From Candidatus Cloacimonadota bacterium (GTDB taxonomy: Bacteria > Cloacimonadota > Cloacimonadia > JGIOTU-2): 64,000 bases of DNA. The translations under genes and the position numbers were made by a program. The notes beneath the pieces are model-generated. The model had not been told where the DNA came from. It searched no databases and saw only the letters and a list, made by a program, of their open reading frames with translations. The stretch lies in assembly GCA_049903315.1 (NCBI GenBank), contig JBNGBT010000001.1, forward strand, positions 192,001-256,000, in the 5' to 3' direction. Positions 9,538 to 34,763 of this stretch are shown here, one piece after another; the stretch's first letter is position 1; the number at the start of each line of letters is the position of its first letter.

Positions 9538-9571
9538 GATTTAAATACTCCTTTCTTTTACAAATCCAAAC

Positions 9572-9986: not shown

Positions 9987-10005
9987 CAGAGGATCTTAAC
10001 AATTT

Positions 10006-10021
10006 TGGCACAATATTTGCA
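10006..10021 (+). promoter_or_regulatory. Sigma-54 -24/-12 promoter for the kinase island operon
   Basis: TGGCAC-AATAT-TTGCA, an exact match to the TGGCAC-N5-TTGC consensus. Confidence 0.75.
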
Positions 10022-10134
10022 GTATTTTATAATATGTTAAAAGAATATAAATTTAGCAATAAAATCATAGTATTATTAACAAATAATTTTCAAATATAAG
10101 ATATCTAATAGAAAGTTTATAATGTAATATTGTT

Positions 10135-10386
10135 ATGAATGAGAAACTATTAAAAAGTTTAGAAAAAGTTAATTTAAAATTTAACGAAGATTTTGTTAGT
10201 GGAAAATTGAATGGATATAATATATTGATTGATGCTTCAAATGATGCTTTAAGAATTGTGCTGAATACTGAAATTGAAGAAGATAAAGGAAAACTTTATG
10301 AATATCTAGATATGAAGAAAAAGAAAATTTTCGCTTTGAAAAATTGTAAAGGATATGATTTCGTTTTGATTTTCTTAAAGATATAA
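10135..10386 (+). other. Short AT-rich ORF, hypothetical or gene remnant
   Basis: 83 aa, protein-like composition, but no clear RBS or recognisable motif. Confidence 0.3.
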
Positions 10387-10620
10387 TTTATATTGCAAAC
10401 TTGAAGATGAAATAATCTATAGTTAAATGATTATGTATAAAAATGATTTAGAGAAGTTAAGATTATTGTCATAATCCTTGATGGTTAAATAATACATGAC
10501 AGTTATACGGCTCAGTTTTGAAATCAAATCGGCTTTATATATATTTAAGAGAATAATGATATATACTTGTAGTGTAATAAAAAGACAATGAAAGAAAAAA
10601 TTAAATTCCATGGAGGAAAA

Positions 10621-11568
10621 ATGGAAAAAAAGACCTTAGTTGGTATAGTCATTCTTGTATTGCTGGTAAGTGCATTATATGCACAGGTTGCTACAACCAC
10701 AATTGAAAAGATTGAAGCAAATCCCGGATCTTATTTCGGAAAAGAAGTTACTGTTCTTGGTTTCATTGAACTGTATGTCGACTCACCAGGTGGCACATAT
10801 TATTATCTTTTAAAAGGCGATTACGGTGGTGTAATAAAAGTAAACTGTTCAAAACAAGAGGAAACTAAAAAGAAATATTATGTAACAGGTCTCGTGCAAA
10901 AAGATTTGAAAACAACCCAACCAATCATTGTTGAAACAAAGATCATTCCTGTAATACCGATACCTGCTGAAGAGGAACCAATCGTAGATTACACGTGGAT
11001 ATACTATGTCTTTGGTGGCTTAGTGATAGTCTTAATAATTCTCATAATTGTACAGTTTGCTATCAAGAAAAAAGGGAAGATGGAACAAACCCTTAGTACT
11101 TCTTCCGATAGCTTCTCTTCAGAACTAAAAGCTCCCCCAACAATGCCCAGTCAGAATACAATGCCCCGAACTTCATCCCAGTTCTCTACTATTAAAATAA
11201 CCAATGCTGTACCTAAAACAATGAGATTCATTCCCGGAAAATTAAAAATTGTATCAGATAGAGATAAGGGTAAAGAGTTCAGGATTGCTGGATACCCAAC
11301 ACCTAAGGGAAATATAGTTACTATAGGAAGAGAAGCAGTAAAAGGTGATAGAGAATTTGCACATATTCAGATTGATGAAAAGTTCGGAACTGTTTCCAGA
11401 AAACAAGCTGAATTCAGAGAAAAGGATGGTAAACTCTATATTAAGAATTTGAGTAGTACTAATCTCACTCAAATCAATGGAAAAGAGATTGCCGCTAATG
11501 AAATTGTTGAAGTGAAGTTTGGTGATGTCGTTCGAATGGGCGAGATCGAGTTCGAATATTCAATGTAA
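10621..11568 (+). CDS. Membrane-anchored FHA-domain protein
   Basis: GGAGG RBS before ATG 10621; signal peptide, exported domain, TM helix, Ser/Thr-rich linker, then FHA (TIGR...VSRKQAEF...STNLTQING). Confidence 0.85.
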   Translation: MEKKTLVGIVILVLLVSALYAQVATTTIEKIEANPGSYFGKEVTVLGFIELYVDSPGGTYYYLLKGDYGGVIKVNCSKQEETKKKYYVTGLVQKDLKTTQPIIVETKIIPVIPIPAEEEPIVDYTWIYYVFGGLVIVLIILIIVQFAIKKKGKMEQTLSTSSDSFSSELKAPPTMPSQNTMPRTSSQFSTIKITNAVPKTMRFIPGKLKIVSDRDKGKEFRIAGYPTPKGNIVTIGREAVKGDREFAHIQIDEKFGTVSRKQAEFREKDGKLYIKNLSSTNLTQINGKEIAANEIVEVKFGDVVRMGEIEFEYSM

Positions 11569-11603
11569 ATAACCAGCTTATCAACAAATATTTGGAGCAA
11601 AAA

Positions 11604-12905
11604 ATGAAAATCAATTCATTTGGGTGGACCTATGTCGGTAGAAGAGAGCAAAATCAGGATTCGATTTTGCTCTTGGAGATAGATAAGACACGTAATATAT
11701 ATTTTTACGCTGTTGCCGATGGAATGGGAGGAATGGGGGGCGGAGAAGTTGCCAGTGAAATAGTGACGCGAATTTGTAAGAATTATCTCGAAGAGATATT
11801 CAAAATACATGAAAATCTTAAACTGAAAGAAATTCTTAATGAAGTGATTATTGAGATCGACAATGAGATCCTCAGAACGACAGAGGAAGACAAAAGCCTT
11901 TCTGGCATGGGATCCACCCTTACATGTCTTTTGATAGCTGGGAAAAATTACGTAGTGGGAAATGTTGGGGATAGTAGAACCTATATTTTAGATGGAAAAA
12001 ATATTCATCAATTATCAGTTGATCATTCATATATAGAGGAATATAAGCAAAAATATAATGGACAGGTTGATGAAGCTATACAGAAGAAATACGGGCATAT
12101 TGTTACAAAATCTTTGAGTGGCGTTCATGATGAACCTGATATTTTCCCCAAAGAAAAAGATAGTTATTTACTTGGGGAAGGAACTGCTTTCATGTTATGC
12201 TCTGATGGACTGCTTGTTAATAAAAACAATAATACAACAGGCAATTTCATTCATAAAGTTTGCATTGGGACAAAAAATCCAAAAGAAGCTGTAGAATATC
12301 TTATTAAACTAGCCTATCATTCTGGCTCAACAGATAATATTTCTGTGATATTTGTAGAAATAGGAGAACTGGCCAGGAAAAAGAAAGCGGATCTTCCAAA
12401 ATCTTTCTTCGTTGATCAGGTTGTTTCCAAAGTAAAATTAAAGCCTGTAAAGAGGTTGAAAGTTATTAATTTTGCTTTTATTATTGTTATATTAGCTGGG
12501 ATACTTTTTATTGGGTATAAAATACTACCAACAAAAAGTTACATTAATAGGGAATATAATATTGGCAAAAGTGAATTAGAAACACCAGATACTTCTAAGA
12601 CTTACAACAAAATACAGAAATTAGAATTCGTAAAAATCGATGTTGGTGACGAAATAAATATTGATGTTGGTCGAATTTCTTGGGAATTTAGTGGAGGTAA
12701 AAATCTTGAATACACATTACAAATTGAAAAAGACAATTCAATAGTAATAACATATGAAACAGAAATGATAGAAATTGAAATTAATAAAGTTTTCGATAAA
12801 GATAAAGACATAAAAAGAGGAGAAAAGTACAATTTTATTATCAATGCTAATTCAAGTGATGGGCAAACAGAACAAGGAATCAAAAAGAATGTATTATTAA
12901 AATAA
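11604..12905 (+). CDS. PP2C-family Ser/Thr phosphatase with TM helix and C-terminal exported domain
   Basis: GRREQNQD, VADGMGG, NVGDSR, CSDGL, DNIS; TM helix near residue 295; GGAG RBS before ATG 11604. Confidence 0.92.
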   Translation: MKINSFGWTYVGRREQNQDSILLLEIDKTRNIYFYAVADGMGGMGGGEVASEIVTRICKNYLEEIFKIHENLKLKEILNEVIIEIDNEILRTTEEDKSLSGMGSTLTCLLIAGKNYVVGNVGDSRTYILDGKNIHQLSVDHSYIEEYKQKYNGQVDEAIQKKYGHIVTKSLSGVHDEPDIFPKEKDSYLLGEGTAFMLCSDGLLVNKNNNTTGNFIHKVCIGTKNPKEAVEYLIKLAYHSGSTDNISVIFVEIGELARKKKADLPKSFFVDQVVSKVKLKPVKRLKVINFAFIIVILAGILFIGYKILPTKSYINREYNIGKSELETPDTSKTYNKIQKLEFVKIDVGDEINIDVGRISWEFSGGKNLEYTLQIEKDNSIVITYETEMIEIEINKVFDKDKDIKRGEKYNFIINANSSDGQTEQGIKKNVLLK

Positions 12906-12921
12906 AAGAATTAGGAGAAGC

Positions 12922-15462
12922 ATGAAAAAATATATTTTATTACTACTTTGCATCTTTCTGGCATTTTGTAAAGGTTCTCAATACGAATTCAAGACGACAG
13001 AACTAAAGATTAAAAGGATAGAAATAACCCAGTTACCAGATCTTACATTATTTTACAAGTGTTTTGTGAATGGTGAAGCTATTGCTGAAGACGAAAACTG
13101 TATAAAGAGTACTAATATAAGCTGTAACGATCAGAATTTTACCATTGACGACATATCGCTTTATACTCCCAATCTTGATGTATATTATATAACCAACTAT
13201 CTCAGCAACACTTCAATTCTGAATTACGAATCATCATTAAATAAAATACACTCTCAGTATAAAATCTATAAAAATGATATCAATTCCCTTTCAGAAATAC
13301 CAATCATGAATGCAGAGGTTATTAATCTACAGACATATTGGAAAAAATGTAGTAATTTCTTTGATAATACGTTTTCTTTTCTGCAGACACTTGATGATCA
13401 ATACTCATACAAATTATTCATATTTTTCATATCCAAAAATACAGATGAAAACGAAATAGCGAACAGGAAGTATGTGGAGAACATACAACAGGTGATTAAT
13501 AAGCACCCTAATTGGGGATTTGGAATTTTCTATGAAAAAGGTTTTGCAGAACAGATCAAAAACTTCAATATAAGCATTCCAGATCAATGTTTCTTTATTA
13601 AAGAGCTTATTGATGTTGAATACAAAGGTTCACAAGCACAGGAAAAAGAAATCAATAGTGCTGTAAGTTTGATGATGAACTCAAACTACAAAATAGATCT
13701 AAGATTTGATAATGAATATATTGTAGATCCTAATAGAGAAACATATGAAATTATCCTTTCTTCAAATTATAAGAATATACTCCTTAGTGACAATTATAGT
13801 TGGCATCCTGCTCTGTCTTTAATCAAAGAATATTATATACAATATGTGGAAAATTCGATAGCTGTATATGAAGAAGATGAAAATTATCCAGCGATGCTTG
13901 GCATAATATGGGATGAATACAGTAAAACGAAGTTCCCAGAATTAAAACAATTAGCGGTTAGTAAAATCAGAGAATGGCTTGTTTCTAACGTTGATTTACT
14001 AGAAAATCAATCACAATCAGAATTACTATTTCAGAGTGGATTTGATGCTCTATATATTGCTGATAATGTCTGGGAACTAACAAGTATCTGGTATTTAGGT
14101 TTAAAAGAGAAATTTTTAGTTCTTTACGCAGCTTATCAAAAAAATCAAAATCATAATTATAATGAGCGCATAGAGATATATAATAAAATACTTACCATTA
14201 ATCCAGATAATAAGGAGATGGAATTTGATCTTAACGAATGCATTGCCGATCAATATTTAGATGCATCAAATTATCCTAATGCTTTAGAGTATCTGCAAAA
14301 AGCTGTTGATATAAATAACACATCGGAAATTCGGACAAAACTTAAAACAAATCTTAAAAGAATAATTACTTCAGATTTCCAAAACAGAAACTATGAAGAG
14401 CTTTATTACTTAGCGGAAAAGTACAACATCTATATTAATGATCCAAAGGAGGATTTTAGAAGTATTACATACTGGGCTATTGCAGCAAGGAATATACACA
14501 AATCAGATTCAGCACTTGCAAAATTTAACATTTTACTTGATAATTGGCACCAGAATGATGTATTAGACTACGATGATTTGTTGAAGTATATGTTTAATGT
14601 TTATGCCGAGAATATGGATTTTGAAGAAGCATATGAGTTATTAAAGCAAGTCAGCATGGATATACAGGAGGACGAGCTTTACAAGGTGCCCGATCTTTTA
14701 TGGGCAATTGTCTATCTACGTAGTGTTTATTTGGAACCATTCATAAATGTGGTAAATAGATATTTTATGAATAATGGTCTACACAATATACAACCACTTG
14801 CGATGGAGTATGCAGATACTGATTTATCTCAATATTTGGAAAATATGTATATCTTAAACTCTAATGGTAATCTTAAAACAAACATATATGGTTTAGAAGG
14901 GAATATTAAATTACCTACTCACCTTAATAGATATACAAAGAAATATATCGAAGATGATATTACGAACTGGTATATACAACCAATTAGTAATGGATATTTT
15001 GTTGTGCAAACCAGTAATAACCTTACTCCTTCTGAAGAAGTGTGGTATAGGGATCTGCAGAACAATTTCTCGGAACCAGCGATCTGGAATGAAGCGAAAG
15101 AGTTTTTTACGGATGAATCAAGGATAACCTTGATCAAACTTACTTCAGTAATTATTGGAAATGATGTCGTGTATAATGGTGTTCAAAATATTCCCACATA
15201 TAGTCAAGTATTAGGTGAGTTCCCGGATTATAAATATTTTGTTATTCAGAATTCAGTCGAGAAGATTATATATAATTTGAACTTCGATACTGGAGATGCA
15301 CTATATTTTAATAATGGTTGGGAATCATCAAGTCAATCCCCCCTTCTATACCGACAAGAAATTGAATATGGTTTTAATAAGACCAAGTTATTAGATATAG
15401 CTTACCCATATTTCAAGTCCGGAAACTGGCAAGGTGTAATACGCTACGGATTCAAAGAATAA
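12922..15462 (+). CDS. Large exported protein (possibly a lipoprotein) with central TPR-like helical repeats
   Basis: Signal peptide MKKYILLLLCIFLAFC; TPR-like segments (YNKILTINPDN, NYPNALEYLQKAVDI). Confidence 0.65.
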   Translation: MKKYILLLLCIFLAFCKGSQYEFKTTELKIKRIEITQLPDLTLFYKCFVNGEAIAEDENCIKSTNISCNDQNFTIDDISLYTPNLDVYYITNYLSNTSILNYESSLNKIHSQYKIYKNDINSLSEIPIMNAEVINLQTYWKKCSNFFDNTFSFLQTLDDQYSYKLFIFFISKNTDENEIANRKYVENIQQVINKHPNWGFGIFYEKGFAEQIKNFNISIPDQCFFIKELIDVEYKGSQAQEKEINSAVSLMMNSNYKIDLRFDNEYIVDPNRETYEIILSSNYKNILLSDNYSWHPALSLIKEYYIQYVENSIAVYEEDENYPAMLGIIWDEYSKTKFPELKQLAVSKIREWLVSNVDLLENQSQSELLFQSGFDALYIADNVWELTSIWYLGLKEKFLVLYAAYQKNQNHNYNERIEIYNKILTINPDNKEMEFDLNECIADQYLDASNYPNALEYLQKAVDINNTSEIRTKLKTNLKRIITSDFQNRNYEELYYLAEKYNIYINDPKEDFRSITYWAIAARNIHKSDSALAKFNILLDNWHQNDVLDYDDLLKYMFNVYAENMDFEEAYELLKQVSMDIQEDELYKVPDLLWAIVYLRSVYLEPFINVVNRYFMNNGLHNIQPLAMEYADTDLSQYLENMYILNSNGNLKTNIYGLEGNIKLPTHLNRYTKKYIEDDITNWYIQPISNGYFVVQTSNNLTPSEEVWYRDLQNNFSEPAIWNEAKEFFTDESRITLIKLTSVIIGNDVVYNGVQNIPTYSQVLGEFPDYKYFVIQNSVEKIIYNLNFDTGDALYFNNGWESSSQSPLLYRQEIEYGFNKTKLLDIAYPYFKSGNWQGVIRYGFKE

Positions 15463-15511
15463 CGTTCTACAGCTGCTGACATGAGTAATCAAACAAGAAA
15501 TTGGAGTTTAC

Positions 15512-17047
15512 GTGCTAGTAGAAAAATTTAAGGAATATTATGGTTCTAAGTACTCAATTGAAAACCAATTGCATCAGTCAAACATGTCTTATATATATAA
15601 AGGACTGAAACTTGATACTGGTGAACCTGTAGCTATTAAGATACAAAAGCCGCAGATGAACGATCCGGAGACCAGCAAAAAACGTTTTTTCCTCGAACCC
15701 GAACTGCTTAATCAGTTCAGCCATCCCAATATTGTAAAAGTGCGGGAGATGGAGGGCAACGGTGAGGTCAACTATTTCTCTCTTGAGTACATCAATGGAC
15801 TGGATTTGTTCAAAACGGTAAATACCCAAGGTATAATTCCATACGATAAAGGAATCGAGATCATTAAGCAGGTTAATTCTGCATTAAAACATGTACACAA
15901 GCTTGGTAAGGTCCACAGAGATATAAAAACTTCAAACATTATGGTTGATCAGAGTGGCAGAGCTGTGCTTATTGATTTTGGCATTGCCCTGGATCTTCAT
16001 GCAACAACACGTTTAACTATACATGGCGACATTTTTGGAACTCCTGAATATATGTCTCCGGAACAGGCACGGGGTGAAAGAGACATTGATAAGTCAACGG
16101 ATATTTATTCAATTGGTATAGTCTTGTATGAGATCTTTACCGGTAAAATTCCTTTCAGGTCTGATAATCAAATCCGGACAATTGAACTTATAAAAAATAT
16201 GGATCCTGAACCACCTAAAAAACATAATCCTTCCATACCAAAGCATATAAATAATACGATCATGAAATGCATTGCAAAAAATCCCGCTGATCGTTTTCAG
16301 CATATTGAGGATATCAGCGATGCGCTAGAATCTGATAAGATAGTCATTTCACACCAGGACGAAAAGATAAAAACAGCTCGAAAAGCAGATACAAGAGACA
16401 AGCCTGATACGAAGGCAACTATAACAAGCAGTGAGATCAAGATAAAACGCGCAATCAATGCAATTATTGGTATTATTGTACTTGCCATGGTAATTTTTCC
16501 TGTATTTTTCGTAAAAGATACTGTTTTAAGAATAATCATTCCTTTAATGATAATCATACTTGGTAGTATAATATACATGCTGTCCCCATTTTTCCCAAAG
16601 AAAGCATTCAGAAGAATGCCTACACAGCAACCGGGAAATATTCAAGGCAATTCTTTCAATGATTTCTTTGTTCCTTCTCTCCAGAGGAACAGCTCCCGCA
16701 TTCCGGGTACTTTTAAAATAATTGATGGTCCTGATAAAGGCAAATGTTTTACTGTTCCGGGAATCATTGAATCGGGATTAATTCGTTCGACTTTTGGAAG
16801 AGGAGGTATTGAGTATCCACTTTCCCTGGCACATATTAAAATATATGATAGGGAAGATCTGAGGATGATTTCACGGTACCAAATGGAATTATTTTACAAT
16901 AACCGTGATGTGATACTTCGTAATAAAAGCCAAAATACCCCCGTATGCATTAATGATGATATTCTTTATAGCGACCAACACAGTGTACTAAATGATGGGG
17001 ACATCATAGAAATCTCTAAGATAAAGCTAAGGTACAACAGTCTATAA
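15512..17047 (+). CDS. Hanks-type Ser/Thr kinase with TM hairpin and C-terminal FHA domain
   Basis: VAIK, HRDIKTSN, DFG, GTPEYMSPEQ, DIYSIG; two TM helices; FHA (TFGR...ISRYQ). Confidence 0.92.
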   Translation: MLVEKFKEYYGSKYSIENQLHQSNMSYIYKGLKLDTGEPVAIKIQKPQMNDPETSKKRFFLEPELLNQFSHPNIVKVREMEGNGEVNYFSLEYINGLDLFKTVNTQGIIPYDKGIEIIKQVNSALKHVHKLGKVHRDIKTSNIMVDQSGRAVLIDFGIALDLHATTRLTIHGDIFGTPEYMSPEQARGERDIDKSTDIYSIGIVLYEIFTGKIPFRSDNQIRTIELIKNMDPEPPKKHNPSIPKHINNTIMKCIAKNPADRFQHIEDISDALESDKIVISHQDEKIKTARKADTRDKPDTKATITSSEIKIKRAINAIIGIIVLAMVIFPVFFVKDTVLRIIIPLMIIILGSIIYMLSPFFPKKAFRRMPTQQPGNIQGNSFNDFFVPSLQRNSSRIPGTFKIIDGPDKGKCFTVPGIIESGLIRSTFGRGGIEYPLSLAHIKIYDREDLRMISRYQMELFYNNRDVILRNKSQNTPVCINDDILYSDQHSVLNDGDIIEISKIKLRYNSL

Positions 17048-17066
17048 ATTAAATTGATGAGGTGAC

Positions 17067-17774
17067 ATGGAAATATATATAGGTAAAAGCAGCGATAATG
17101 ATTATAGGATTGAAGATCCACATGTTTCAAGAAAACACTGTAAGATAATTATTCAGAGTGGCAGAATGTACATTATAGATCTGAATTCCACCAACGGAAC
17201 ATACCTTGATGGACAGAAGATCAATCCCAACGAAAAATATTATATTGATAGTCGTTCTGAAATTCTTCTTGCAGGGACCAAAAAAATTGATTGGAACGTG
17301 ATAACTCGATACATTCCTGATGAAAATAAGACAGTAAGGATAAGCGAACCTGTTCAATTTCCGCCGAAAAACCACAAGTTACCTGGAGAGCAGCACAGTC
17401 ATAAGCAGGAACTCAGAAATGAATATTCTAGAAATAAACGGGAGAGAACAAGTCGAGATAATAGACAGTATGATAATTATCAGAAAAGAGGTTTTAGAGA
17501 TGAAGTGAATTATGCAGTACATGCAGGAAAATCTTATGTAGGATCAGCATTTATCACACTTGCACTTTATTATGTAGGTCTTTGGTTAGGGGGAGTTATA
17601 TGCAATATTATATATTTAGGACAAGCAAAAAAAACAAAAGAAATAATTGGCTCTAGTCCATCAGGATATGGGTGTTTGATCTTTTTAATATGGACCCACT
17701 TGATAATTCCTATACTAGTCCTATTGTTTTTATTAATAACTGGTTCATCAATATTGGTTGGGATATTTAATTAA
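17067..17774 (+). CDS. FHA-domain protein with C-terminal TM helices
   Basis: IGK...VSRKHCKI...DLNSTNGTYLDG; two C-terminal hydrophobic segments. Confidence 0.88.
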   Translation: MEIYIGKSSDNDYRIEDPHVSRKHCKIIIQSGRMYIIDLNSTNGTYLDGQKINPNEKYYIDSRSEILLAGTKKIDWNVITRYIPDENKTVRISEPVQFPPKNHKLPGEQHSHKQELRNEYSRNKRERTSRDNRQYDNYQKRGFRDEVNYAVHAGKSYVGSAFITLALYYVGLWLGGVICNIIYLGQAKKTKEIIGSSPSGYGCLIFLIWTHLIIPILVLLFLLITGSSILVGIFN

Positions 17775-18007
17775 TGAAATTAATAATTCTGTTCATGATA
17801 AAAATATATAGATTTATATATCATCCCATCAAACAAGGATTCCGTGATGCGGGGATCGAACTGAATAAATGCCAGTTTACACCGACCTGCTCGGAATATG
17901 CAATTATAGCACTAAACAAGTACCCTATAAAAAGAGCACTAAAGAAAATAATAAACCGCCTGAAGCGGTGCAGTTTTACCACGATTAATCAGATAGATTA
18001 CCCTTAA
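17774..18007 (+). CDS. yidD: YidD-like membrane protein insertion efficiency factor
   Basis: Signature IKIYR...CQFTPTCSEYA...RLKRC...DYP; translationally coupled (TAATG) to the upstream gene. Confidence 0.8.
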   Translation: MKLIILFMIKIYRFIYHPIKQGFRDAGIELNKCQFTPTCSEYAIIALNKYPIKRALKKIINRLKRCSFTTINQIDYP

Positions 18008-18021
18008 AGATTGAGGTTTAC

Positions 18022-21336: not shown

Positions 21337-21346
21337 AAGGTGCTAC

Positions 21347-21547
21347 ATGGAAATTTTTCTAAAAATTATATTAAGTCTAATATTGGGAAACTGTATTATC
21401 CTAATTTCATGCACAAATGATCTAGTGGACTTTTCAGAGTTACAAATCCTGGACCAGCAGATACATGCGCCCTACAAAAAGATACCGGAGTATTCAGAAC
21501 AATATTTACCACACTATCCTTTGCTGCTATCGATGATACTGCGATAA
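21347..21547 (+). pseudogene. Short lipoprotein-like ORF, probably a truncated remnant
   Basis: RBS, hydrophobic signal ending LISC, then an early stop at 66 aa. Confidence 0.35.
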
Positions 21548-21625
21548 GAATTATGTTATTGAACGATCTAATAAATTGGTTAATTAATGAAAAATAATAA
21601 AAAAAAATTACTTTTGGAGGATCTC

Positions 21626-25611: not shown

Positions 25612-25620
25612 GGATTGACC

Positions 25621-27762
25621 ATGAACATTTTTAAATATCTGATTGTTTTATTATTGGTGAATATTTTATTTTTAGCAAAATGCACCACCCCCGAAACCAC
25701 AAATCCCTATGATCCTGGCTATGAGTTGCCAGCTCCAAGCAATTTTGATATTGCGCAGGAAACACTAACCTCCTGTGCCCTTACCTGGACTGATAATGCA
25801 GAAGGAGAGGAAGGATATAGGATAGAGAGAAAATCAGAGCAACGTAAGATATCTACTCAAAAAGGAAAATGTGAGACTAAAGGAGATTGGGAAAGATTAG
25901 TAGAATTAGATCCTAACACAGAACAGTTCCCGGATGAAGATGTGATGCCGGGTTATACCTATATCTACAGAGTGTATGCCTTTGCAGGGGAGAATGAATC
26001 CAATAAGCTTGAGAAAGAATTTATAGTTCAGTTCAATGCACCTAGTGGATTTAATGTTAAGCAGACAAGTCTTAGCTCATGTAAACTAAACTGGAATGAC
26101 AATTCTGAAGGAGAGTATGGCTTTATTATTGATAGAAAAGTAGATGGTGGATTCTGGGAAATAGGTTATGCAGATGTAGAAGAGAATATTAACGAATTTG
26201 ATGATACAGAGGTTTTACCTGAATCAATTTATACATATCGTATATATGGTTTTATCGAAGGGGCTACCTCGAGTAAGATAGAAAGTTCAGCAGAAATTAT
26301 ATTTGCAGAACCTACAGACCTATATATCTCACAGGATAATGTGCACACCTTTATCTTAACCTGGAACTATCCAACGGACTGGCCAGAAGGATACAAGATA
26401 GATAGAAAGATAGATGATGGAGAATGGGAGCAAGAGATAGGGCTGGTTAATGATGTATTAATAACTTTATGGGCTGATGATACTGTTGGAAGAAACTACA
26501 CTACGGTTTATTATAGGATGTATGCATACTGGAATGATTATACCTCAAACAAAGTTGAAGGTAATAGTAACATAGAGTTTGATGCTCCTACGAATTTAAA
26601 TTATGACAAGGTAACAATAAATTCAATAAAACTATCCTGGCAAGATAACAGTGATGGAGAGAGTGGATTTAAGATAGACAAAAAGGTTGGGGCTTCTAGT
26701 TGGGTAGAGGAATATGGTGAAGTAAGTGAGAATGATACTACCTGGACAGATATTGATGTAGAGGTCAATGAGGATTTACAGTATAGTGTATATGCCTATT
26801 GTGGAGATAACACATCTAATTCGATAGAGACTGATCTGATAGATAATACGATCCCAGCACCCGAAAACTTATCCTATGAAATCGAGAATGGTAATGATGT
26901 TCATTTGTATTGGGAATATACAACGTCTGGTATAGACGGATTTACATTAGAGCGGAAAGTTGATGATGAGTCCTGGGCTATGTTAGTAAATAATCTCTCT
27001 CCTGATTTGCGAGAATATCTTGATGAGGAGATTAGTATGGAAGATCATTATTCCTATAGAGTATTAGCATATTATGGTAATTATGAACCTTCTTATTCTA
27101 TAGAAATAGTGGTTAATTCTATTCCAACAAATGGACTAGTAGCATATTATCCTTTTAACGGTAATGCAAATGATGAAAGCGGGAATGGTCATAATGGTGA
27201 TTCCCAACCAAATGTTGATTTTTCAGCTGTCGATAGATTTGGAAACTCTAATAGTGCTATCTACATTGGTTCAAGTTATATCACTATTCCTGAAAATGTT
27301 GATTTAAATCTTCAAAGTCATACTATTTCAGCTTGGTCAAAATTCGAAAATGGGCATACAGGTTCTTTGGGAGGGATTTTCAATAACGGTTACAATTATG
27401 ATCATTATGCATTATGTGGAAACAATAGTCTTATTAGATCTTGGATAAATTATCCCAATAGTCCTGATGATGAACATATTTTCAATACAACAATTTTGGA
27501 AGATGAAGAATACCATCATTTGGCAGCAACTTATAATTTTGAGATTAGAACCTTATGGATAGATGGAAATTTAGTAAGTACCATGGTTTTCAATGAAACA
27601 ATTAATTATTCAAATAGTGAAAATTGTTATATTGGAATTAATTTTCCTGGAGGTGATGATTGGTTTCCTGGTTATTTAGACGACATTCGTATATACAATC
27701 GAGCCTTAACTGAACAAGAGATTCAGTCCTTATACCATGAAGGTGGTTGGGGATATAAATAG
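25621..27762 (+). CDS. Lipoprotein with five FN3-like repeats and a C-terminal LamG domain
   Basis: Signal ending LAKC; NPYDPG N-terminus shared with the previous gene; GLVAYYPFNGNANDESGN...DDIRIYNRAL. Confidence 0.85.
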   Translation: MNIFKYLIVLLLVNILFLAKCTTPETTNPYDPGYELPAPSNFDIAQETLTSCALTWTDNAEGEEGYRIERKSEQRKISTQKGKCETKGDWERLVELDPNTEQFPDEDVMPGYTYIYRVYAFAGENESNKLEKEFIVQFNAPSGFNVKQTSLSSCKLNWNDNSEGEYGFIIDRKVDGGFWEIGYADVEENINEFDDTEVLPESIYTYRIYGFIEGATSSKIESSAEIIFAEPTDLYISQDNVHTFILTWNYPTDWPEGYKIDRKIDDGEWEQEIGLVNDVLITLWADDTVGRNYTTVYYRMYAYWNDYTSNKVEGNSNIEFDAPTNLNYDKVTINSIKLSWQDNSDGESGFKIDKKVGASSWVEEYGEVSENDTTWTDIDVEVNEDLQYSVYAYCGDNTSNSIETDLIDNTIPAPENLSYEIENGNDVHLYWEYTTSGIDGFTLERKVDDESWAMLVNNLSPDLREYLDEEISMEDHYSYRVLAYYGNYEPSYSIEIVVNSIPTNGLVAYYPFNGNANDESGNGHNGDSQPNVDFSAVDRFGNSNSAIYIGSSYITIPENVDLNLQSHTISAWSKFENGHTGSLGGIFNNGYNYDHYALCGNNSLIRSWINYPNSPDDEHIFNTTILEDEEYHHLAATYNFEIRTLWIDGNLVSTMVFNETINYSNSENCYIGINFPGGDDWFPGYLDDIRIYNRALTEQEIQSLYHEGGWGYK

Positions 27763-27771
27763 GAGATACTC

Positions 27772-29751
27772 ATGATTCATAATACTATGAAACAGAAATT
27801 ATTGTTAGCTTATATTTCTTTCGTTTTTATTTTAGTAAATTGTTCTCTTTTTGCTCAAAGCTCAATGCATATATGGGATCAGAACGACGGGAGTCTTAGT
27901 GATGGTGCAATCCATGGACAGGTTTGGTCAAACATTGGAGGACCAATCAAAGATGCACTTGTTTTTGTATCCAATCCAGAACTTTCACATCTCTATGGTG
28001 ATGATGTGAGTGCTGGTGGTGATAATTGGGGTGATTATTGGGTAGGGCCTCTCCCTTCAAATACTAATCTAGTAGTCTTTGCATATCATCTAGAAAGACC
28101 ATTTATTCTTAAATCAGAAGAATTTAATTTAAATTATAATGAAAATCGCGAAATAGAGTTGGATCTATCAATAGATTATACAGATCCAGGTTTTATCACT
28201 ATGAATAGTGATTTCGTTAATTATGGAAATGGGGGGGTATTACACTTAGCAGGTTTTATTTTAAGAATGATAACATTACTTCAACAATCTCAAAATAATA
28301 CTACAGCTCAAGCTATTATTGAACAGTTAGAATCATTGCAAACAAATAATCAAACGTCGTATGCAAATCCTACCCTCGGTTTCATCCTCGACTCATCAGG
28401 GAGCATGAGTGATAATGATCTGAATGATATTAGAAAAACTGCACTGATCAATATTATCAAAGATAGACTAACGGGAAATGAACAGGTACATATTGTGGAT
28501 TTTGACTCAGATGCCCATGTCTGTAATAGTAAAATATCAGGTTGGTCTAAAGATGAGCTCATAAGCGCTGCAAAGACGATCGACTCATCCGGTGGTACCA
28601 ATGTAGAAGCAGGACTGGACGTCATGAGTGCGTCACTCACAAAGAGTGGTTTTTCAAATAATACAGGAGTGATGTTATTAACTGACGGAAAGGGGGAATA
28701 CAAAGACGCAGCACAGTGGTATATGAATAAGGGGATAAAGGTTTATACCGTAAGCTTTGTGGGAGATGCCGATGAGGTACTTCTCAGGAATATCGCTCAC
28801 CAGACAGGTGGTATTTACATGCGCGCTGATACCGCAGACCAGATATGCAATCTTTTTAATCTGTTTTACGATCTTCTCACTGGGAGCAGTATGTTTGCCT
28901 TTCATCAGGATCTTATCCATCAGGGTGATGTGCTTGATTATTATTTCCCAATTGATAATGTTGAAGGAGATCTGTATTTTGCTACAAACTGGTCAGGGAG
29001 CAAAGTCGATATGAAAATAATCTCACCGTCAGGTAATGTGTATACCGTAAATGATGGTAAGGGTTCATGGAATATTGGTGATAATTATGCTACAGCTTCG
29101 ATCCCATCCAAAGAGATCGGTAATTGGGAAGTACAGTTAATAGGTTCGCAGATACCCCAGCAGGGTGAAGAGGTAAGTCTCGAGGTGCATGGTAAATCTG
29201 ATCTCCTGTTCAATATTGACATGAACACTCATCAGGGATTTGTTGATTTTACTATAGTCAGCGCAATGCAACATCTTGTAGGGAATTATTCCGCAAATGT
29301 CACAGTAAAAACACCAAATGGAAAAGTGCTAGATATCTCAGATAAATTAAATGGGAACAAGCTGAACTATTTTCCAATTTCGGGCAAAGGAAGTTATCAG
29401 TTCAGTTTTCATATCCAGGGCAGCAGAAACGATGGTACTAAATTCCAGAGACAACTTACACGCTACTATTTTGCTGGGGAGCATGCAATACCATACATAT
29501 CACCAATTACATATATTCTCGGTAATTGTGTATATGCTGATATAGGTAAGGTCGTAGGTAACTCACCAGGTATAAAATGTTATATATATCGAGGTGATGT
29601 GAATAATTATCAAAATTGCATCGCAGAAGGTTATGTAATCAACTGTAAAGATCTTGAATGTACTGCTGAGATCGATTATTATCTTCAAAATACAAAAGCT
29701 CAGGTCGGTGATATCCTTAAGCTTGATGAGGATGACTGGAGAGCTGATTGA
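27772..29751 (+). CDS. Exported von Willebrand factor A domain protein
   Basis: Signal peptide; MIDAS motif ILDSSGSM, GGTN, LLTDG, LRNIAHQTGG. Confidence 0.88.
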   Translation: MIHNTMKQKLLLAYISFVFILVNCSLFAQSSMHIWDQNDGSLSDGAIHGQVWSNIGGPIKDALVFVSNPELSHLYGDDVSAGGDNWGDYWVGPLPSNTNLVVFAYHLERPFILKSEEFNLNYNENREIELDLSIDYTDPGFITMNSDFVNYGNGGVLHLAGFILRMITLLQQSQNNTTAQAIIEQLESLQTNNQTSYANPTLGFILDSSGSMSDNDLNDIRKTALINIIKDRLTGNEQVHIVDFDSDAHVCNSKISGWSKDELISAAKTIDSSGGTNVEAGLDVMSASLTKSGFSNNTGVMLLTDGKGEYKDAAQWYMNKGIKVYTVSFVGDADEVLLRNIAHQTGGIYMRADTADQICNLFNLFYDLLTGSSMFAFHQDLIHQGDVLDYYFPIDNVEGDLYFATNWSGSKVDMKIISPSGNVYTVNDGKGSWNIGDNYATASIPSKEIGNWEVQLIGSQIPQQGEEVSLEVHGKSDLLFNIDMNTHQGFVDFTIVSAMQHLVGNYSANVTVKTPNGKVLDISDKLNGNKLNYFPISGKGSYQFSFHIQGSRNDGTKFQRQLTRYYFAGEHAIPYISPITYILGNCVYADIGKVVGNSPGIKCYIYRGDVNNYQNCIAEGYVINCKDLECTAEIDYYLQNTKAQVGDILKLDEDDWRAD

Positions 29752-29855
29752 ATGATGTTACGCTGTTGTATTTGTCTTAAATTACAGGATCTCTTAAATT
29801 CTTTGTCAGATATGAATTTGTTCAAACCAATTCCCCTAATTTATAAAGAAGGTTT

Positions 29856-30695
29856 ATGAAAAGGATTTTGATTTTAGAAGACAACGAAGAATTAGCAAAT
29901 TATTATTCCAGGTTGGTCTTAAAGGAGGGATTCAAGACTAAGCACGCCTTAAACAGTAATGAATTTTTTAAATTATATGATACTTTCTTACCATCTATCA
30001 TTTTACTGGATATAAAACTTAATAATAGTAAATTAAGTGGGCTCGAAGTTTTTGTGAAGCTGGTAAAAAGTGGTGATTTCAAAGCAAAAGTCATTGTTAT
30101 TTCGGGGGAAGCATCACGAAGTGAGATTGCTCATGCAATAAAGTTAGGTGCCCATACCTTTATCGAAAAAACTGGTGATTTCAATGTTGATAAATTCCTT
30201 TCTGATGTAAGAGCGGCATATCAACTAAAAAGACAGGAGGAAGCAACAGATAAACTACTGCAGGAGAAGAAAAATCTTAGGCATTCATTATTGTATCAAT
30301 ATCCATTTATCGGTCAATCAAATACAATTGAAAAAGTTAAAAAGAATATTAAGAAGTTTGCAGAAGCTGATGTTGATGTAATGATACTCGGAGATACTGG
30401 TACGAGTAAAGAAGTAGTTGTACATCATTTATATTATCATTCGAAAAGAGCTGGAAAACCATTTGTGAAGGTAAATGCTGGTGGTTTACCCGAGAGTATA
30501 GTAGACCTTGAGTTATTTGGACATAAAAAAGGATCTTTTACTGATGCAAGGTTTGATAAAAGAGAATACTTTGAACAAGCAAATGGAGGATATTTGTTTT
30601 TAGATGAAATAGCAAATATCACACTACCAATACAGGTAAAAATACTTCAGGCAATTGAAAATATTGATTATTACTTACAAAATACTATAGCCTAG
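29856..30695 (+). pseudogene. Truncated paralogue of the sigma-54-dependent response regulator, fused to a vWA-gene tail
   Basis: Closely similar to 33357..34763 up to AIEN, then switches to IDYYLQNTIA*; Walker A altered (GTSKE); AAA+ C-terminal half and HTH missing. Confidence 0.8.
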
Positions 30696-30743
30696 ATCGG
30701 TGACATACTTAAACTTGACGAGGATGATTGGAAGTCTGAATAA
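30663..30743 (+). repeat. Diverged 81-nt copy of the 3' end of the vWA gene (29671-29751)
   Basis: IDYYLQNTIA*IGDILKLDEDDWKSE* versus IDYYLQNTKAQVGDILKLDEDDWRAD*. Confidence 0.9.
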
Positions 30744-30759
30744 AAACTTCAGAGGATAG

Positions 30760-33360
30760 ATGAACAAAATGAGAAAATTATTAAAACCTGAATATTTTAT
30801 TATACTTGCTATCATTCTAACTGCTATTTACTTTATATCGAGCCCGTTTCGTTTTTATAAGGGTGGTGAGTTATATCGAACTGAATTTACTCGAATTGAA
30901 TCTGCAGAAGTTGGCATTGTTAATCGTAATAATCCAAGTGAATATTTCATTGCCCATAGAGCACGCACAGGATTTTATGCAGAATTTCATAATTTTGATG
31001 GTACAATTCAATCAATCCATGAAATTTCTGGTGCAGCCCTACGAAACATTGGGCATCCCTTTTCAACAAATTTATGGGTAGGGGATAAAGCTTATTTTTC
31101 AGGTTTACGGTCTCAAGAAGATTTAGTAATTTGGGAAGTTGATTTCAATACAAAAAAGGTTCAAGAACATTTTGTAAAGAACCTCAATATTTTAAGATCT
31201 TTACAGGATACAATGATCGTGAAGAACGGATTTGCTTTTTATAAACCAAAAATAAATACGCAAAATGATAAAAAAATTGATTTGTATTTTGATGGGGAAG
31301 GATACAGATTACTATTCTCAGAGTCAACAGGGGATTCAATCTATTCTTATTTTGATGTAGAATTTCTTGAGAATCATTATGCATATCTGAAAGTATCGGA
31401 GTATCTGAATAATTATCTCAAACCTGAGAAAAAATTCACTTTGTACGATGTATTTGAGATAATAAACTTTTTCAACAGAAATAATTTCTATGATAAAAAA
31501 TACTTTGCTCACATGGACTACGTATGTGCTCCTGTAAGTTATATTTTATTGCAGAATAGTTTCGATGCAAATAATGATGGTAATAAAGACCTTTTAATAA
31601 GAGTGAATTTTTCTAGATTTTGTAATGATATGCTGATATGTTATGATCTACATAATGAAAGAATTCTATGGGAAAGAAATGATTTTCATAATGTAAAAAA
31701 TGTTCAAATTCTTGATTTAGAAAATGACGGAGAAGATGAATTGCTTTTTAGTACCTATGCGCCATGTAACGAAATTCCGATAAATTTTCATGAGCTCAAC
31801 ACTAAATTTCGTAATAGAAGTTATTTTTGTATCTTAAGTGCTCAAGATGGAAGTATAAAAGAGATTAATGGTAAACAAGCTCTTATCAAATCCCCAAGAG
31901 GATTTTATGAATTTAGATTTATTCCAATTAAAGAAAAAAATAAGATATTGTTGGGATTAATGGCAAGATCAGATTTTGAAGTTAAGAAATTGCTTGAGTT
32001 TGATTTTTCAGTTAATTTCTTAGATACTTTGAACATTGAATATACAAATCTCTTGGGATTCACAAAAGATAAAGGGAAAATAGTTATTTTCGACAATCCC
32101 CTTAATATGCTAAGGTCAATAAAGTTAGATGCCAACTTAGAGCTGGCATCAACGAAAACAATTAAAGTTAACGAAAGTAAACTTATGACATTTATGCCAA
32201 CATTTATTGATATTGATAAAAAAAAATATAATCTTCTTTTTTCAGTAGAAAAGTTTGTGTTCGATAATTCACTAAAATCAATCGCCAATTTTTATCAACA
32301 GTTTAGAGATTTCACTGCGCAATCATTCAATAATAACTTATATTTCATTGATTATACTGGTGATAATTTCTATTTTTCACAAATAAAATTCATACAAAAT
32401 AGAACACTTAATCCGGTGATTATAAACTTACTTATCTTTGAGTTAATCATTTTTTTATTTTTTTTGTTGATCAAACAATCAATTTCACTACCTGCATTAT
32501 CAACAAAGGATAATTTTTTTGTAATCTGTTCCTTCTTCGGCTTATTATACACCTGGCGCGTAACAGGTGTCTATAGCAGGTTTTTCCGATTGCCCAAATG
32601 TATGTCCTTCAATAAGCAGTTAGCATACAGATACTTATATGATATATCAGACAAGGTTCAAGAATATTATATCAATTCTGCACTTTTCATAAAAACTAAG
32701 ATATATAAGTTCCACACCGAAAATGAGCTTTCAATCATCCAGAGAATTTCCCACGATCTCAAAAATCAAATTCTCATGATCAAGCTTCAAATAGATGAAT
32801 ATTACAGCAATCTGAAAAAGAAACGGGCTGAAGAAGTGAGTATGATGCTTGATACGATCAAAGAAATTTCTGAAGTGGCACAAACGTTATCGAATTTCTC
32901 TCAGATAAATCAATTATTCAAGGAACAAATACATATTTTGTCTTTGATAGAAGAGATCCTTGCAGAATTATACGCACATAAGAATATCAATTGTGTTCAG
33001 ATTGAATCAGATAACGATTACGCTCTATTCGTTGACAAAAAGCTACTCAAGACAGCGCTGAAAAATCTTATTTGCAATGCAATGGATGCAATAAAAAATG
33101 ATCAGCGATTTTTGATTGCCATAAAAAAAGTCGATCATGTGATTAGCATCATCCTTAAGAATCCGACAGATATAATCCAAGAAGAATTCGAGAAGATTGA
33201 AGAAATCGGATTTACAACAAAAAAAACGGGATCTGGGCTTGGTATACCAATTTCTCGGTCGATCATTGAAAAACATGATGGAAAATTTCAAATAATTTTA
33301 AAGGATAAATATTTTATAGTTGAAATATATCTGCCGTACGAACAAAGGGAGAAATCATGA
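30760..33360 (+). CDS. Sensor histidine kinase with large extracytoplasmic domain
   Basis: N-terminal TM; FG-GAP-like DANNDGNKDLL and DLENDGEDELL; TM helices; H-box ISHDLKN, N-box NLICNAMDA, G2 box FTTKKTGSGLG. Confidence 0.88.
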   Translation: MNKMRKLLKPEYFIILAIILTAIYFISSPFRFYKGGELYRTEFTRIESAEVGIVNRNNPSEYFIAHRARTGFYAEFHNFDGTIQSIHEISGAALRNIGHPFSTNLWVGDKAYFSGLRSQEDLVIWEVDFNTKKVQEHFVKNLNILRSLQDTMIVKNGFAFYKPKINTQNDKKIDLYFDGEGYRLLFSESTGDSIYSYFDVEFLENHYAYLKVSEYLNNYLKPEKKFTLYDVFEIINFFNRNNFYDKKYFAHMDYVCAPVSYILLQNSFDANNDGNKDLLIRVNFSRFCNDMLICYDLHNERILWERNDFHNVKNVQILDLENDGEDELLFSTYAPCNEIPINFHELNTKFRNRSYFCILSAQDGSIKEINGKQALIKSPRGFYEFRFIPIKEKNKILLGLMARSDFEVKKLLEFDFSVNFLDTLNIEYTNLLGFTKDKGKIVIFDNPLNMLRSIKLDANLELASTKTIKVNESKLMTFMPTFIDIDKKKYNLLFSVEKFVFDNSLKSIANFYQQFRDFTAQSFNNNLYFIDYTGDNFYFSQIKFIQNRTLNPVIINLLIFELIIFLFFLLIKQSISLPALSTKDNFFVICSFFGLLYTWRVTGVYSRFFRLPKCMSFNKQLAYRYLYDISDKVQEYYINSALFIKTKIYKFHTENELSIIQRISHDLKNQILMIKLQIDEYYSNLKKKRAEEVSMMLDTIKEISEVAQTLSNFSQINQLFKEQIHILSLIEEILAELYAHKNINCVQIESDNDYALFVDKKLLKTALKNLICNAMDAIKNDQRFLIAIKKVDHVISIILKNPTDIIQEEFEKIEEIGFTTKKTGSGLGIPISRSIIEKHDGKFQIILKDKYFIVEIYLPYEQREKS

Positions 33361-34763
33361 GTAAGAAAATACTTATTCTCGAAGATAATGAAAAACTCGG
33401 TAAGTATTATTCCAAAATACTGAGAGAAACCGGTTTCGAAGTAGCACATGTCAAAAATAGTACAGATTTTTTTGCAAGATATCCTGTGTTTAAACCTGCA
33501 ATAATATTATTGGATATTAAGCTGAATAATAGTCCATTGAGTGGACTTGAAGTTTTTGAAGAACTCATAAAAAAAGATCAGATTAGTGCGAAGGTAATTG
33601 TCCTGTCAGGTGAGGCAAGCCGAAGTGAAATCGCACATGCAATGAAACTGGGGGCTCATACTTTTATCGAAAAAACCGGCGATTTTAATACTGATAAATT
33701 TTTATCAGATATAGAAACGGCATATCAGCTCCAAAAGCAGGAAGAAACCACGAGAGAACTGATCGAGGAGAAAAAAAATCTAACCAGTTCATTCCTTGCA
33801 CAGTACCCGCTAATAGGAGAATCGAAGTGCATTAAAGAACTCAAAAAGGAAATTCTACGTTTTGCGAAAGCGGATGTGGATGTGCTTATACTTGGTGATA
33901 CGGGAACCGGTAAGGAAGTAGTTGCACATCACCTGTACTGGAACTCAAAACGATCAGGTAAGCCCTTTATTAAAGTTAACGCAGGAGGAATGCCGGATAG
34001 TTTGGTCGATTCAGAGCTTTTCGGGCATAAGAAAGGCTCCTTCACAGATGCTCACTATGATAAAAAGGGGTATTTTGAGCAAGCAGATGGTGGATATTTA
34101 TTCCTTGATGAAATAGCAAGTATCTCCCCAGCTATACAGGCTAAGATATTACGTGCAATCGAAAATAAGGAAATTCGCGTGGTCGGCGGGGAACAAAAAA
34201 AAGTCGATGTGAAGATCATATTTGCATCAAATAAAGACCATAAACAACTCATTAAAGATAATGAATTTCGCAGTGATCTTTATTACAGAGTTGCAAGAAA
34301 TGTCATTTTTATTCCTCCACTAATTGAGCGGGATGATGATATTATCCTTTTGCTGAATTATTTTTGCGAGATGCACAGCAAAGAATTTGAAGCATTTCTC
34401 GATTTTGATCTATATAAAATAAAAGGAGAACTTTTACGTTACACCTGGCCTGGAAATGTTCGTGAACTTCATAGTTTTTGTGAAAATCTTCTTATTCGTT
34501 ACAACATAATTGATAATGATGTGATTTTGGAAGAGGTCAATAATAAGATATCTGGAAAGTTATATAAAGATGATGATTCGCTATTTAAACTTCTTCAAAT
34601 AAATAAATTGCCAGATGCGGTTGATGTATTTGAAAAAAAATATCTTCAATATCATCTTGCTTTGAATGACGAAAATATGAGTAAAACTGCTGAGAGAATT
34701 GGAATAGAAAGAACGACTCTATATCGTAAATTGAAGAAGGGAGGTGAGGAGGGTAAAAAGTAA
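33357..34763 (+). CDS. NtrC-family sigma-54-dependent response regulator
   Basis: Receiver (LEDN, LLDIKL); Walker A GDTGTGKE; SELFGHKKGSFTDA; LFLDEI; FRSDLYYR; WPGNVREL; Fis-type HTH (IGIERTTLYRKL); ATGA overlap with the kinase gene. Confidence 0.95.
   Translation: MSKKILILEDNEKLGKYYSKILRETGFEVAHVKNSTDFFARYPVFKPAIILLDIKLNNSPLSGLEVFEELIKKDQISAKVIVLSGEASRSEIAHAMKLGAHTFIEKTGDFNTDKFLSDIETAYQLQKQEETTRELIEEKKNLTSSFLAQYPLIGESKCIKELKKEILRFAKADVDVLILGDTGTGKEVVAHHLYWNSKRSGKPFIKVNAGGMPDSLVDSELFGHKKGSFTDAHYDKKGYFEQADGGYLFLDEIASISPAIQAKILRAIENKEIRVVGGEQKKVDVKIIFASNKDHKQLIKDNEFRSDLYYRVARNVIFIPPLIERDDDIILLLNYFCEMHSKEFEAFLDFDLYKIKGELLRYTWPGNVRELHSFCENLLIRYNIIDNDVILEEVNNKISGKLYKDDDSLFKLLQINKLPDAVDVFEKKYLQYHLALNDENMSKTAERIGIERTTLYRKLKKGGEEGKK

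Follow-up and report, generated by a model that had tools for sequence, protein, structure and literature searches.

A 64,000-nucleotide stretch of DNA from a Candidatus Cloacimonadota bacterium, which we call the window (C11:192001-256000 of genome G000, 2.96 Mb and 96.4% complete), carries a run of genes for Ser/Thr kinases, a PP2C phosphatase, FHA proteins, and many envelope proteins (g1 to g14, Table 1). The named parts are all co-oriented on the + strand between 10621 and 34763, with intergenic gaps of -4 to 104 bp except for one of 250 bp after g7. The original prediction took the entire run to be one phosphosignaling system spanning the envelope, under sigma-54 control. We find that the conserved unit is smaller than the full run: it consists of g1, a protein with an OB-fold, a transmembrane (TM) segment, and an FHA domain (OB-TM-FHA), together with a PP2C phosphatase (g2) and a zinc-ribbon Ser/Thr kinase (g7). 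We propose, with moderate confidence, that this trio operates on its own as a phospho-threonine switch spanning the inner membrane. The trio is apparently undescribed. No description of it was found in the open-access full-text literature, and supplements or subscription journals could list such loci; PMC7159879, PMC11188069, and PMC12419801, as far as their available text goes, describe other systems. Pfam bears out the parts originally listed, namely two membrane Hanks kinases, a membrane PP2C, three FHA domains (g1, g4, and g5), a YidD homologue, a TPR protein, a PEGA protein, two FN3 proteins, a vWA protein, and a histidine kinase (HK)/NtrC pair. To these we add a second, truncated NtrC (g12), the OB-fold of g1, a hidden vWA domain in g3, the zinc ribbon of g7, and the gene g0.

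The evidence for the smaller unit comes from the relatives of g1. The protein collection holds 57 other g1 homologues, and a profile was built from 47. Scans with this profile gave 19 genome loci and 47 metagenome loci, numbers that are lower bounds, each resting on one or two short FHA patterns. Six loci (L056, L062, L063, L067, L074, and L078) were dropped before counting, having no called open reading frame (ORF) that matched the g1 profile; among 68 loci, including L080 and the window, 62 gave a g1 ORF, and these fall into 47 groups at 85% identity. Of the 34 non-redundant loci with at least 1.5 kb of downstream sequence, 33 have a PP2C gene no more than 2.5 kb from g1. Where at least 4 kb of sequence is present, a kinase lies within 6 kb in 21 of 25 loci, and a zinc-ribbon kinase lies within 8 kb in 18 of 25. 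Other neighbors are far more variable: across the same 25 loci, FGE domains occur in 11, g3-like genes in 7, PEGA (by BLAST) in 3, FN3 in 3, and g11-type vWA in 2, and YidD, the g5 tail, HK, and NtrC occur only in the window's own group (1/25). The flanks read for these counts reach at most 10 kb (up to 30 kb for three loci), whereas HK and NtrC in the window lie 18-22 kb from g1. The linkage of g1 to a PP2C and a zinc-ribbon kinase is thus conserved, and the long order first envisaged (FHA-PP2C-STK-FHA-yidD-STK-PEGA-vWA) is not; the genes g1-g7 stay together (63-89% identity) in a single close relative, the metagenomic locus L032, where a further kinase is present and the chromosomal site differs, and whose sequence ends after g7.

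The g1 protein combines an outer OB-fold with an inner phospho-threonine reader. Its signal peptide is followed by glutamine at the cleavage point in 45 of 47 homologues. A structure search of the model finds a five-stranded OB barrel in the mature outer domain, aligned over 86 residues to the MCM N-domain (Z 13.9, rmsd 1.6), with AsnRS/AspRS (Z 12.6-12.7) and RPA (Z 12.2) as other near matches and with conserved aromatic residues at Y52, Y61, Y62, and Y86. The barrel resembles nucleic-acid-binding OB folds most closely, and nucleic-acid binding is putative, suggested by fold similarity. A search of the ESM Atlas with this domain gave leads only, at 0.83-0.84. Inside the membrane, a linker whose model confidence (pLDDT) is below 50 at residues 156-185 leads to two threonines, T190 (consensus DFKTIKI) and T200 (PKTLKF), both invariant in 47 of 47 aligned homologues. 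The linker that precedes them is just 21% conserved, and conservation of the motif region (0.74) compares with 0.70 for the FHA domain. The +3 residue is hydrophobic after both threonines, as FHA domains usually prefer. The two motifs are also present in most of the locus-derived g1 ORFs, which were recovered by FHA patterns and not by the motif. In the FHA domain itself, the phosphate-binding residues G236, R237, and S259 are kept in 47 of 47 homologues and N281 in 46 of 47. We therefore take T190 and T200 as candidate phosphosites, as their sequence context suggests.

The module PP2Cs are on average 41% identical to one another, as against 27-28% to two outside PP2Cs, and in L049/L061 the PP2C is fused to a g3-type C-terminal domain. 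The kinase g7 begins with a four-Cys zinc ribbon and ends in a domain of FGE fold, for which the best PDB match is TvpA. The first of the two FGE cysteines after RGGS is a threonine in an alignment to PDB 6muj; this cysteine is, we assume, the catalytic residue, and its replacement led us to reject a catalytic FGE. A role for this domain as the target of a diversity-generating retroelement was also rejected, as the genome has no RVT_1 match and no second FGE-like tblastn match. Across loci, the kinase ectodomains differ widely (PASTA, FGE, PEGA, Fib_succ, TPR, WD40, TonB_C, FKBP+LamG, and BatD), and several loci have two or three kinase paralogues. Beyond the run, the only other kinase match of the genome is a 1840-residue protein with an N-terminal kinase-like domain (G000:C44:114567-120089; L084:2567-8089).

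Pairwise identities of PP2C and kinase are correlated across 19 loci (rho 0.44, reached in 1 of 2000 permutations). The module is rare. Within the host phylum, g1 was found in 1 of 232 genomes; elsewhere it was found in 3 of 401 genomes from the order of G047 (Bacteroidales, about 1%), 2 of 251 from the family of G047, and 2 of 251 from the class of G043, and six of these seven carriers had already been reached through the g1 profile genome scan. Record titles of carriers name Bacteroidales, Cyclobacteriaceae, Ignavibacteria, and Verrucomicrobiae, with Saccharicrinis spp. and Rosettibacter firmus as cultured carriers. One contig titled Candidatus Pacearchaeota (L010) holds a full bacterial-type module, by mis-binning or transfer. 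Some related loci also encode double-FHA ABC transporters (L047:6192-8495, L054:4002-6305, and L030:14783-17257), which are candidate kinase outputs and have an Rv1747-like architecture.

The run also bears marks of arrival from elsewhere. It is part of a ~26-kb low-GC insert (30-37% GC in the run region versus 38.5% genome-wide) that separates arcC from the PALP/xdh operon at the 8440-35033 junction. The two sides are only 6-211 bp apart in five relatives (G003, G011, G012, G013, and G014) and less than 1 kb apart in G001 and G005, and three others (G008, G009, and G010) hold different cargo at the junction, which argues that the ~26-kb stretch, judged by gene order, is an insertion at a variable site. 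Every FHA match of the genome lies inside it (g1 and g5 in the genome scan, plus g4 by Pfam on the window). Positions 26000-36500 occur in one contig, with no differences, in three of four public runs compared; the runs are possibly the source of the assembly, so this agreement excludes little beyond a local mis-join. Within the genus, the arcC-PALP junction is an insertion hotspot whose cargo is HK-NtrC, ATPase/repeat proteins, short repeats, or none (L086-L094). Patchy spread and insertion at a variable junction would fit an accessory conflict or surveillance role.

How might the trio work? The genes and folds, intact catalytic motifs, invariant threonines, linkage, variable ectodomains, rarity, and insertion are direct observations, on which the following steps build. 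First, a cue at the cell surface would switch g7 on through its interchangeable outer domain; damage to the envelope may be this cue, or else an encounter with a foreign cell or a parasite. Second, g7 is predicted to phosphorylate T190 and T200 in the g1 linker. Third, the FHA domain of g1 itself would bind these phosphorylated threonines, within one chain or between neighboring chains, and g2 would reverse the phosphorylation and reset the switch. Fourth, two sites on a membrane-anchored protein could permit chain formation and thereby clustering of the periplasmic OB-fold. Finally, clustered g1 could nucleate local assembly of the co-encoded envelope proteins (g3 and the PEGA, FN3, and vWA proteins), which in other loci may be joined by TssR-like proteins and an ABC transporter.

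Several observations weigh against this scheme. No toxin, transcription factor, ATPase, or secretion apparatus is conserved with the core, and what the switch finally acts on is therefore a guess. The divergent members L020/L076/L077 and L080 have lost the threonine motif or keep a degenerate form of it, and the same holds for the FHA domain of g4. In L070, g1 has no signal peptide, OB-fold, or TM segment, and in L005 g1 stands alone, with neither PP2C nor kinase. Co-divergence is modest where g1 is concerned (rho 0.29 with PP2C, 75 of 2000 permutations; rho 0.15 with the kinase, 393 of 2000; 19 loci). In addition, two carriers, G047 and G691, have an unlinked T6SS-iii and hold their only TssR matches in the kinase locus. 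Prediction of a complex of the cytoplasmic part of g1 with the PP2C and the zinc-ribbon kinase scored 0.00 in two runs, which is not evidence either way.

By analogy, the trio would work like the threonine phosphorylation pathways of the T6SS (type VI secretion system) and of Esr, and it belongs to neither. In the pathway of the Pseudomonas aeruginosa H1-T6SS (TagQRST-PpkA-PppA-Fha1), as here, a membrane Hanks kinase, a PP2C, and an FHA reader are encoded together. TagR has an FGE fold, and TagS and TagT are LolCDE-like; the module likewise has a non-catalytic FGE domain and vWA domains, and five related loci carry a LolD/FtsX-type ABC pair. TagQ and TagR likely dimerize PpkA, whose only target is Fha1, according to the available text of Kolesnikov 2026 (PMC13713981). 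The differences are nonetheless substantial. The FHA protein of the module crosses the membrane once and bears an OB-fold, the FGE domain is in most cases part of the kinase chain, and the kinases have a zinc ribbon; the TagH/Fha1 model TIGR03354 gives only 20.6 bits for g1 and 38.8 for g5 against a cut-off of 120; and Pfam finds no TagS/TagT-type ABC pair in the window's run. Moreover, there is no T6SS in G000 or in 17 of 20 carriers.

Esr of actinobacteria (EsrA-G) also combines a kinase, a phosphatase, a vWA protein, surface Ig- or lectin-like proteins, and diversified sensors, as described in the accessible part of PMC13622651. The same source reports that in this threat-sensing pathway the phosphorylated threonine of EsrG1 lies in a disordered stretch that precedes the FHA domain, and T190 and T200 are predicted sites in the corresponding position of g1. 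In contrast to Esr, the insert has no MoxR, transglutaminase, or Ig-filament/beta-propeller EsrA by Pfam, its only AAA+ proteins being of NtrC type; the hosts of the module are diderm, and G000 has no WXG100 match and so no link to Esx or the type VII secretion system (T7SS); and g1 is anchored in the membrane with its OB-fold outside, whereas EsrG1 has a pseudophosphatase. The trio would be a diderm counterpart to the newly described Esr logic.

Closer to g1 alone are Bdellovibrio DgcB and the actinobacterial GarA/OdhI, whose FHA structures are the nearest to its own, DgcB being closest by structure (Z 13.6) and by profile. GarA and OdhI close on their own phospho-threonine. In DgcB, the FHA domain binds a phosphorylated peptide that comes from the N-terminal part of the same chain (PMC6733907). 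These proteins are soluble and control an enzyme; in contrast, g1 is membrane-anchored, with two tandem threonine motifs and no catalytic domain. The Deinococcus radiodurans genes DRA0331-0334 (vWA-STK-FHA-PP2C) form a stand-alone operon of the same four domain classes, but there the PP2C carries the FHA domain, the operon is tied to DNA-damage kinases, and the available text mentions no exported OB-TM-FHA protein (bioRxiv 10.64898/2026.01.23.701218). Set beside these systems, the trio is a small, testable module of three genes and two named candidate phosphosites, which may represent threonine-phosphorylation signaling uncoupled from T6SS in bacteria of the FCB group.

Alternatively, the module might serve a secretion or pilus system whose genes lie elsewhere, as its post-translational trigger and, through the TssR-like proteins, as part of its membrane anchor; in carriers that have no such system it would be an orphan. 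We consider this unlikely. In its favor, related loci (L003, L008, L009, L018, and L080) encode, downstream of TssR-like vWA proteins, a LolD-like ATPase and an FtsX permease that resemble TagT and TagS. The best of the TssR-like proteins clear all four TssR Pfam cut-offs, and TM-PKD genes resembling TssP of the Bacteroidota T6SS-iii (TssNQOPR) precede some of them. T6SS-iii loci are often split, according to the accessible portion of PMC10781749, and the T6SS-iii loci of G047 (L081, G047:C1:1920000-1939999) and G691 (L102, G691:C14), the latter alike for TssR, have no TssP/Q/R matches. Two ATPases of the type II secretion/type IV pilus family also lie on contig C70 of G000. Against it, TssC-iii occurs in only 2 of 19 carriers and Hcp/TssD in 3 of 20, not above the 443 systems in 1253 Bacteroidota genomes given in PMC10781749 (part available), and 6 of the 8 carrier genomes with a strong TssR-like match have no TssD. 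G000 gave no match for VipB, TssC-iii, TssD, VgrG OB, TssR, or WXG100, in a search that did not extend to proteobacterial Hcp and TssM; most carriers are metagenome-assembled genomes, so such absences are soft. The TssR-like proteins lie beside an ABC pair rather than tssF/tssD, and a branch with 99% SH-aLRT support separates them from T6SS TssR in a quick, unrooted tree with long branches that shows no direction of co-option. The original idea of a stand-alone kinase/PP2C/FHA module spanning the envelope, with a vocabulary like that of the T6SS pathway, is supported by conserved linkage and the lack of T6SS and T7SS markers in the genome. Its alternative, a regulator of a secretion system elsewhere, does not hold for G000 and keeps some force in the two related genomes with TssR only in the kinase locus.

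The TssR-like loci merit attention in their own right. TssR-like vWA proteins, often as two or three paralogues, occur with a LolD-like ATPase and FtsX outside T6SS loci in L003, L008, L009, L018, L028, L030, L080, L121, and L123-L131, often after surface proteins sorted by the type IX secretion system and PKD proteins; downstream lie FHA/PP2C/kinase genes, SrfB and Virul_Fac (L123), a tubulin-like GTPase (L127), or none of these. Among 401 genomes of the order Bacteroidales, TssR_VWA gave 14 matches, 5 strong and 9 weak. Four of the five strong matches were read in tssP-tssR-T6SS loci, and the fifth is on a 2.8-kb contig; for the nine weak matches, an ABC ATPase follows in all eight where the contig allows. 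The five loci that combine such proteins with the g1 core lie mostly in genomes without T6SS, contrary to the 2024 report (PMC10781749), which detected membrane-complex homologues in T6SS loci alone and identified no ancestral system. The TssR- and TssP-like proteins with a TagS/T-like ABC pair are candidates for the ancestral system sought there.

A second possibility, which also seems improbable, is that the module is a wall-sensing regulator of growth or division like PknB/PstP/FhaA, with PASTA reading peptidoglycan. The PknB/Stk1-PstP/Stp1-FhaA wall/division cluster contains genes for a PASTA kinase, a PP2C, and an FHA protein. Consistent with this, g7 exceeds the NCBIfam Stk1/PknB cut-off (NF033483, 503 versus 450 bits, a score inflated by its seven PASTA repeats), the only FHA matches of the genome lie in the island, and g2 has no paralogue by tblastn. 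But the module is rare and mobile rather than core, and its absence from 231 other genomes of the phylum makes it dispensable. PASTA is just one of many interchangeable ectodomains, no rodA/pbpA or other wall-synthesis genes were seen in the loci read, and g2 falls below the Stp1 cut-off (NF033484, 167 versus 230 bits).

An anti-phage kinase system that arrests the infected cell, like KKP or PD-T4-6, is quite unlikely. The module is mobile and patchy and sits at a hotspot that holds other cargo in G009, its kinases match PADLOC kinase models, and the outer domain of g1 is closest to nucleic-acid-binding folds. The PADLOC matches span only the generic kinase domain, however, and six of eight proteins (g1, g2, g3, g5, g8, and g11) match no model; moreover, nearly all partners face the periplasm, and no effector domain is conserved. 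A bolder extension of the switch, of which we are strongly doubtful, is that g1 represents a new receptor class. Its RPA/anticodon-type OB-fold would bind foreign single-stranded nucleic acid or glycan in the envelope and signal through tandem phospho-threonine/FHA polymerization, and the loci that join it to TssR-like, PKD, and ABC proteins would be a free-living envelope-surveillance machine from which the phospho-trigger of the T6SS and the membrane complex of the Bacteroidota T6SS were co-opted.

The sigma-54 control first proposed as a feature of the system appears to be local. The genome encodes rpoN and has 12 consensus sigma-54 sites, 8 inside ORFs and 4 intergenic; the site at 10006 is among the latter and probably functions, judged by its sequence. 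In the surrounding region (9538-10140), TGTTGCA-like half sites number 7 versus 2.3 in shuffles (1.4% of 500 shuffles as high; the motif was picked post hoc, so this p is optimistic). The palindrome upstream of the site is absent from the sigma-54 promoter of G001 and from four of five relatives searched, and g14 as its reader is therefore unsupported. In G001, of the same genus, vWA-HK-NtrC genes precede a similar sigma-54 site, and in G008 an HK-NtrC pair adjoins PALP at 72% DNA identity, in neither case with a g1 match; no sigma-54 site lies within 800 bp before g1 in any of 26 other loci, where g1 is not always the first gene. Transcription of the run may depend on the promoter in this genome alone, and sigma-54 control is a local graft at most; the promoter and the vWA-HK-NtrC genes are likely, from their distribution, a second cassette acquired at the same hotspot. 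That the whole 25-kb run, with HK-NtrC and promoter, evolved as one system under sigma-54 control is very unlikely: the single tightly spaced run, the strong site with its palindrome, the g11-type vWA after the core in L014, and the short flanks read in related loci speak for it, but, beyond the g1-free cassettes and the promoterless loci, in L003, L006, L009, L014, L018, L064, and L070 the series of co-oriented genes stops or gives way to unrelated ones, with no NtrC, and the g12 remnant marks a rearrangement at the join.

The site was also considered as a displaced host promoter of PALP/xdh and rejected, as nine stretches from relatives lack a comparable site, both upstream of PALP and in the arcC-PALP interval. 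Downstream of the vWA(+TPR)-HK-NtrC genes of L098 (G001:C90:3054-11600), a sigma-54 site precedes genes for exported proteins; this two-component cassette of the lineage is unstudied. The g12 remnant, which runs into a stop-interrupted copy of the last 37 residues of g11 (to 30740), may reflect an old duplication or recombination between two vWA-HK-NtrC cassettes, and it could be a receiver-only decoy.

Table 1. Features of the insert and its flanks, in window coordinates.
Feature	Position	Strand	Description
Split host operon	90-8440 + 35033-42200		Two carbamoyltransferases, carbamate kinase, PALP, MobA-like, XdhC, and xanthine-dehydrogenase-family genes
g0	8476..9537	-	Divergent exported Ig (Big_7) + LamG protein, 353 aa; inside insert (Pfam)
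Palindrome	9753..9769	.	Perfect TGCAAC-N5-GTTGCA; candidate enhancer, 254 bp upstream of sigma-54 site; only exact genome copy
Sigma-54 site	10006..10021	+	Consensus (-24/-12) promoter site, 615 bp before g1
Small ORF	10135..10386	+	83 aa, between sigma-54 site and g1; without family or identified homologue; possibly not a true gene
g1 (core)	10621..11568	+	315 aa; signal peptide A21/Q22, OB-fold 23-111, TM 125-152, disordered linker with T190/T200, FHA 207-315
g2 (core)	11604..12905	+	PP2C phosphatase with a small ectodomain and one TM; intact catalytic Asp motifs; TTG at 11592 is an alternative start
g3 (frequent accessory)	12922..15462	+	Exported, 846 aa, signal-like N-terminus; vWA fold 82-255 without metal-ion-dependent adhesion site (MIDAS), TPRs ~300-600, alpha/beta C-terminal domain
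g4	15512..17047	+	Ser/Thr kinase with FHA and two TMs; N- and C-terminus both predicted in the cytoplasm; Gly-rich loop lost, VAIK, HRD, and DFG motifs kept
g5	17067..17774	+	FHA + two TMs; rare C-terminal domain, 3 other homologues of tail
g6	17774..18007	+	Second YidD copy, overlaps g5 stop; housekeeping-like YidD copy on C70
g7 (core)	18022..21336	+	Zinc ribbon, Ser/Thr kinase, one TM, 7 PASTA, FGE/C-type-lectin-fold domain
g8	21587..23557	+	Exported PEGA-repeat protein; variable accessory (Pfam)
g9	23557..25611	+	Exported FN3-repeat protein, likely lipoprotein; paralogues elsewhere in genome
g10	25615..27762	+	Exported FN3-repeat + LamG protein, likely lipoprotein
g11	27772..29751	+	Exported vWA protein, DxSxS MIDAS intact; with HK-NtrC in G001, with core in L014
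g12	29856..30695	+	Truncated NtrC copy: receiver + part of AAA+, no helix-turn-helix; 69% identical to g14
g13	30760..33360	+	Membrane HK; separate cassette
g14	33357..34763	+	NtrC-family sigma-54 activator, contact loop GSFTDA; separate cassette

The vWA fold of g3 emerges from a structure search of the model (Z ~11, rmsd 3.0-3.4), and a PDB profile search with g3 returned TPR proteins only. For residues ~600-846, a Cache domain is a lead only, as 1 of 57 members matches sCache_3_2 (E 1.7e-4) and CACHD1 appears at rank 50; the ESM Atlas gave no usable match for this domain. Pfam identified no TolQ/proton-channel partner among the ORFs of the insert. The lipoprotein label of g9 and g10 refers to a Cys after a hydrophobic stretch, read from the sequence rather than predicted by a tool. 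The LamG domain of g10 is 35% identical to that of g0, which by position belongs to the insert and is a candidate associate of the module only. Finally, the coupling of a second YidD copy to the FHA-2TM protein g5 (17067-18007) is retained, among the loci read, only in L032.

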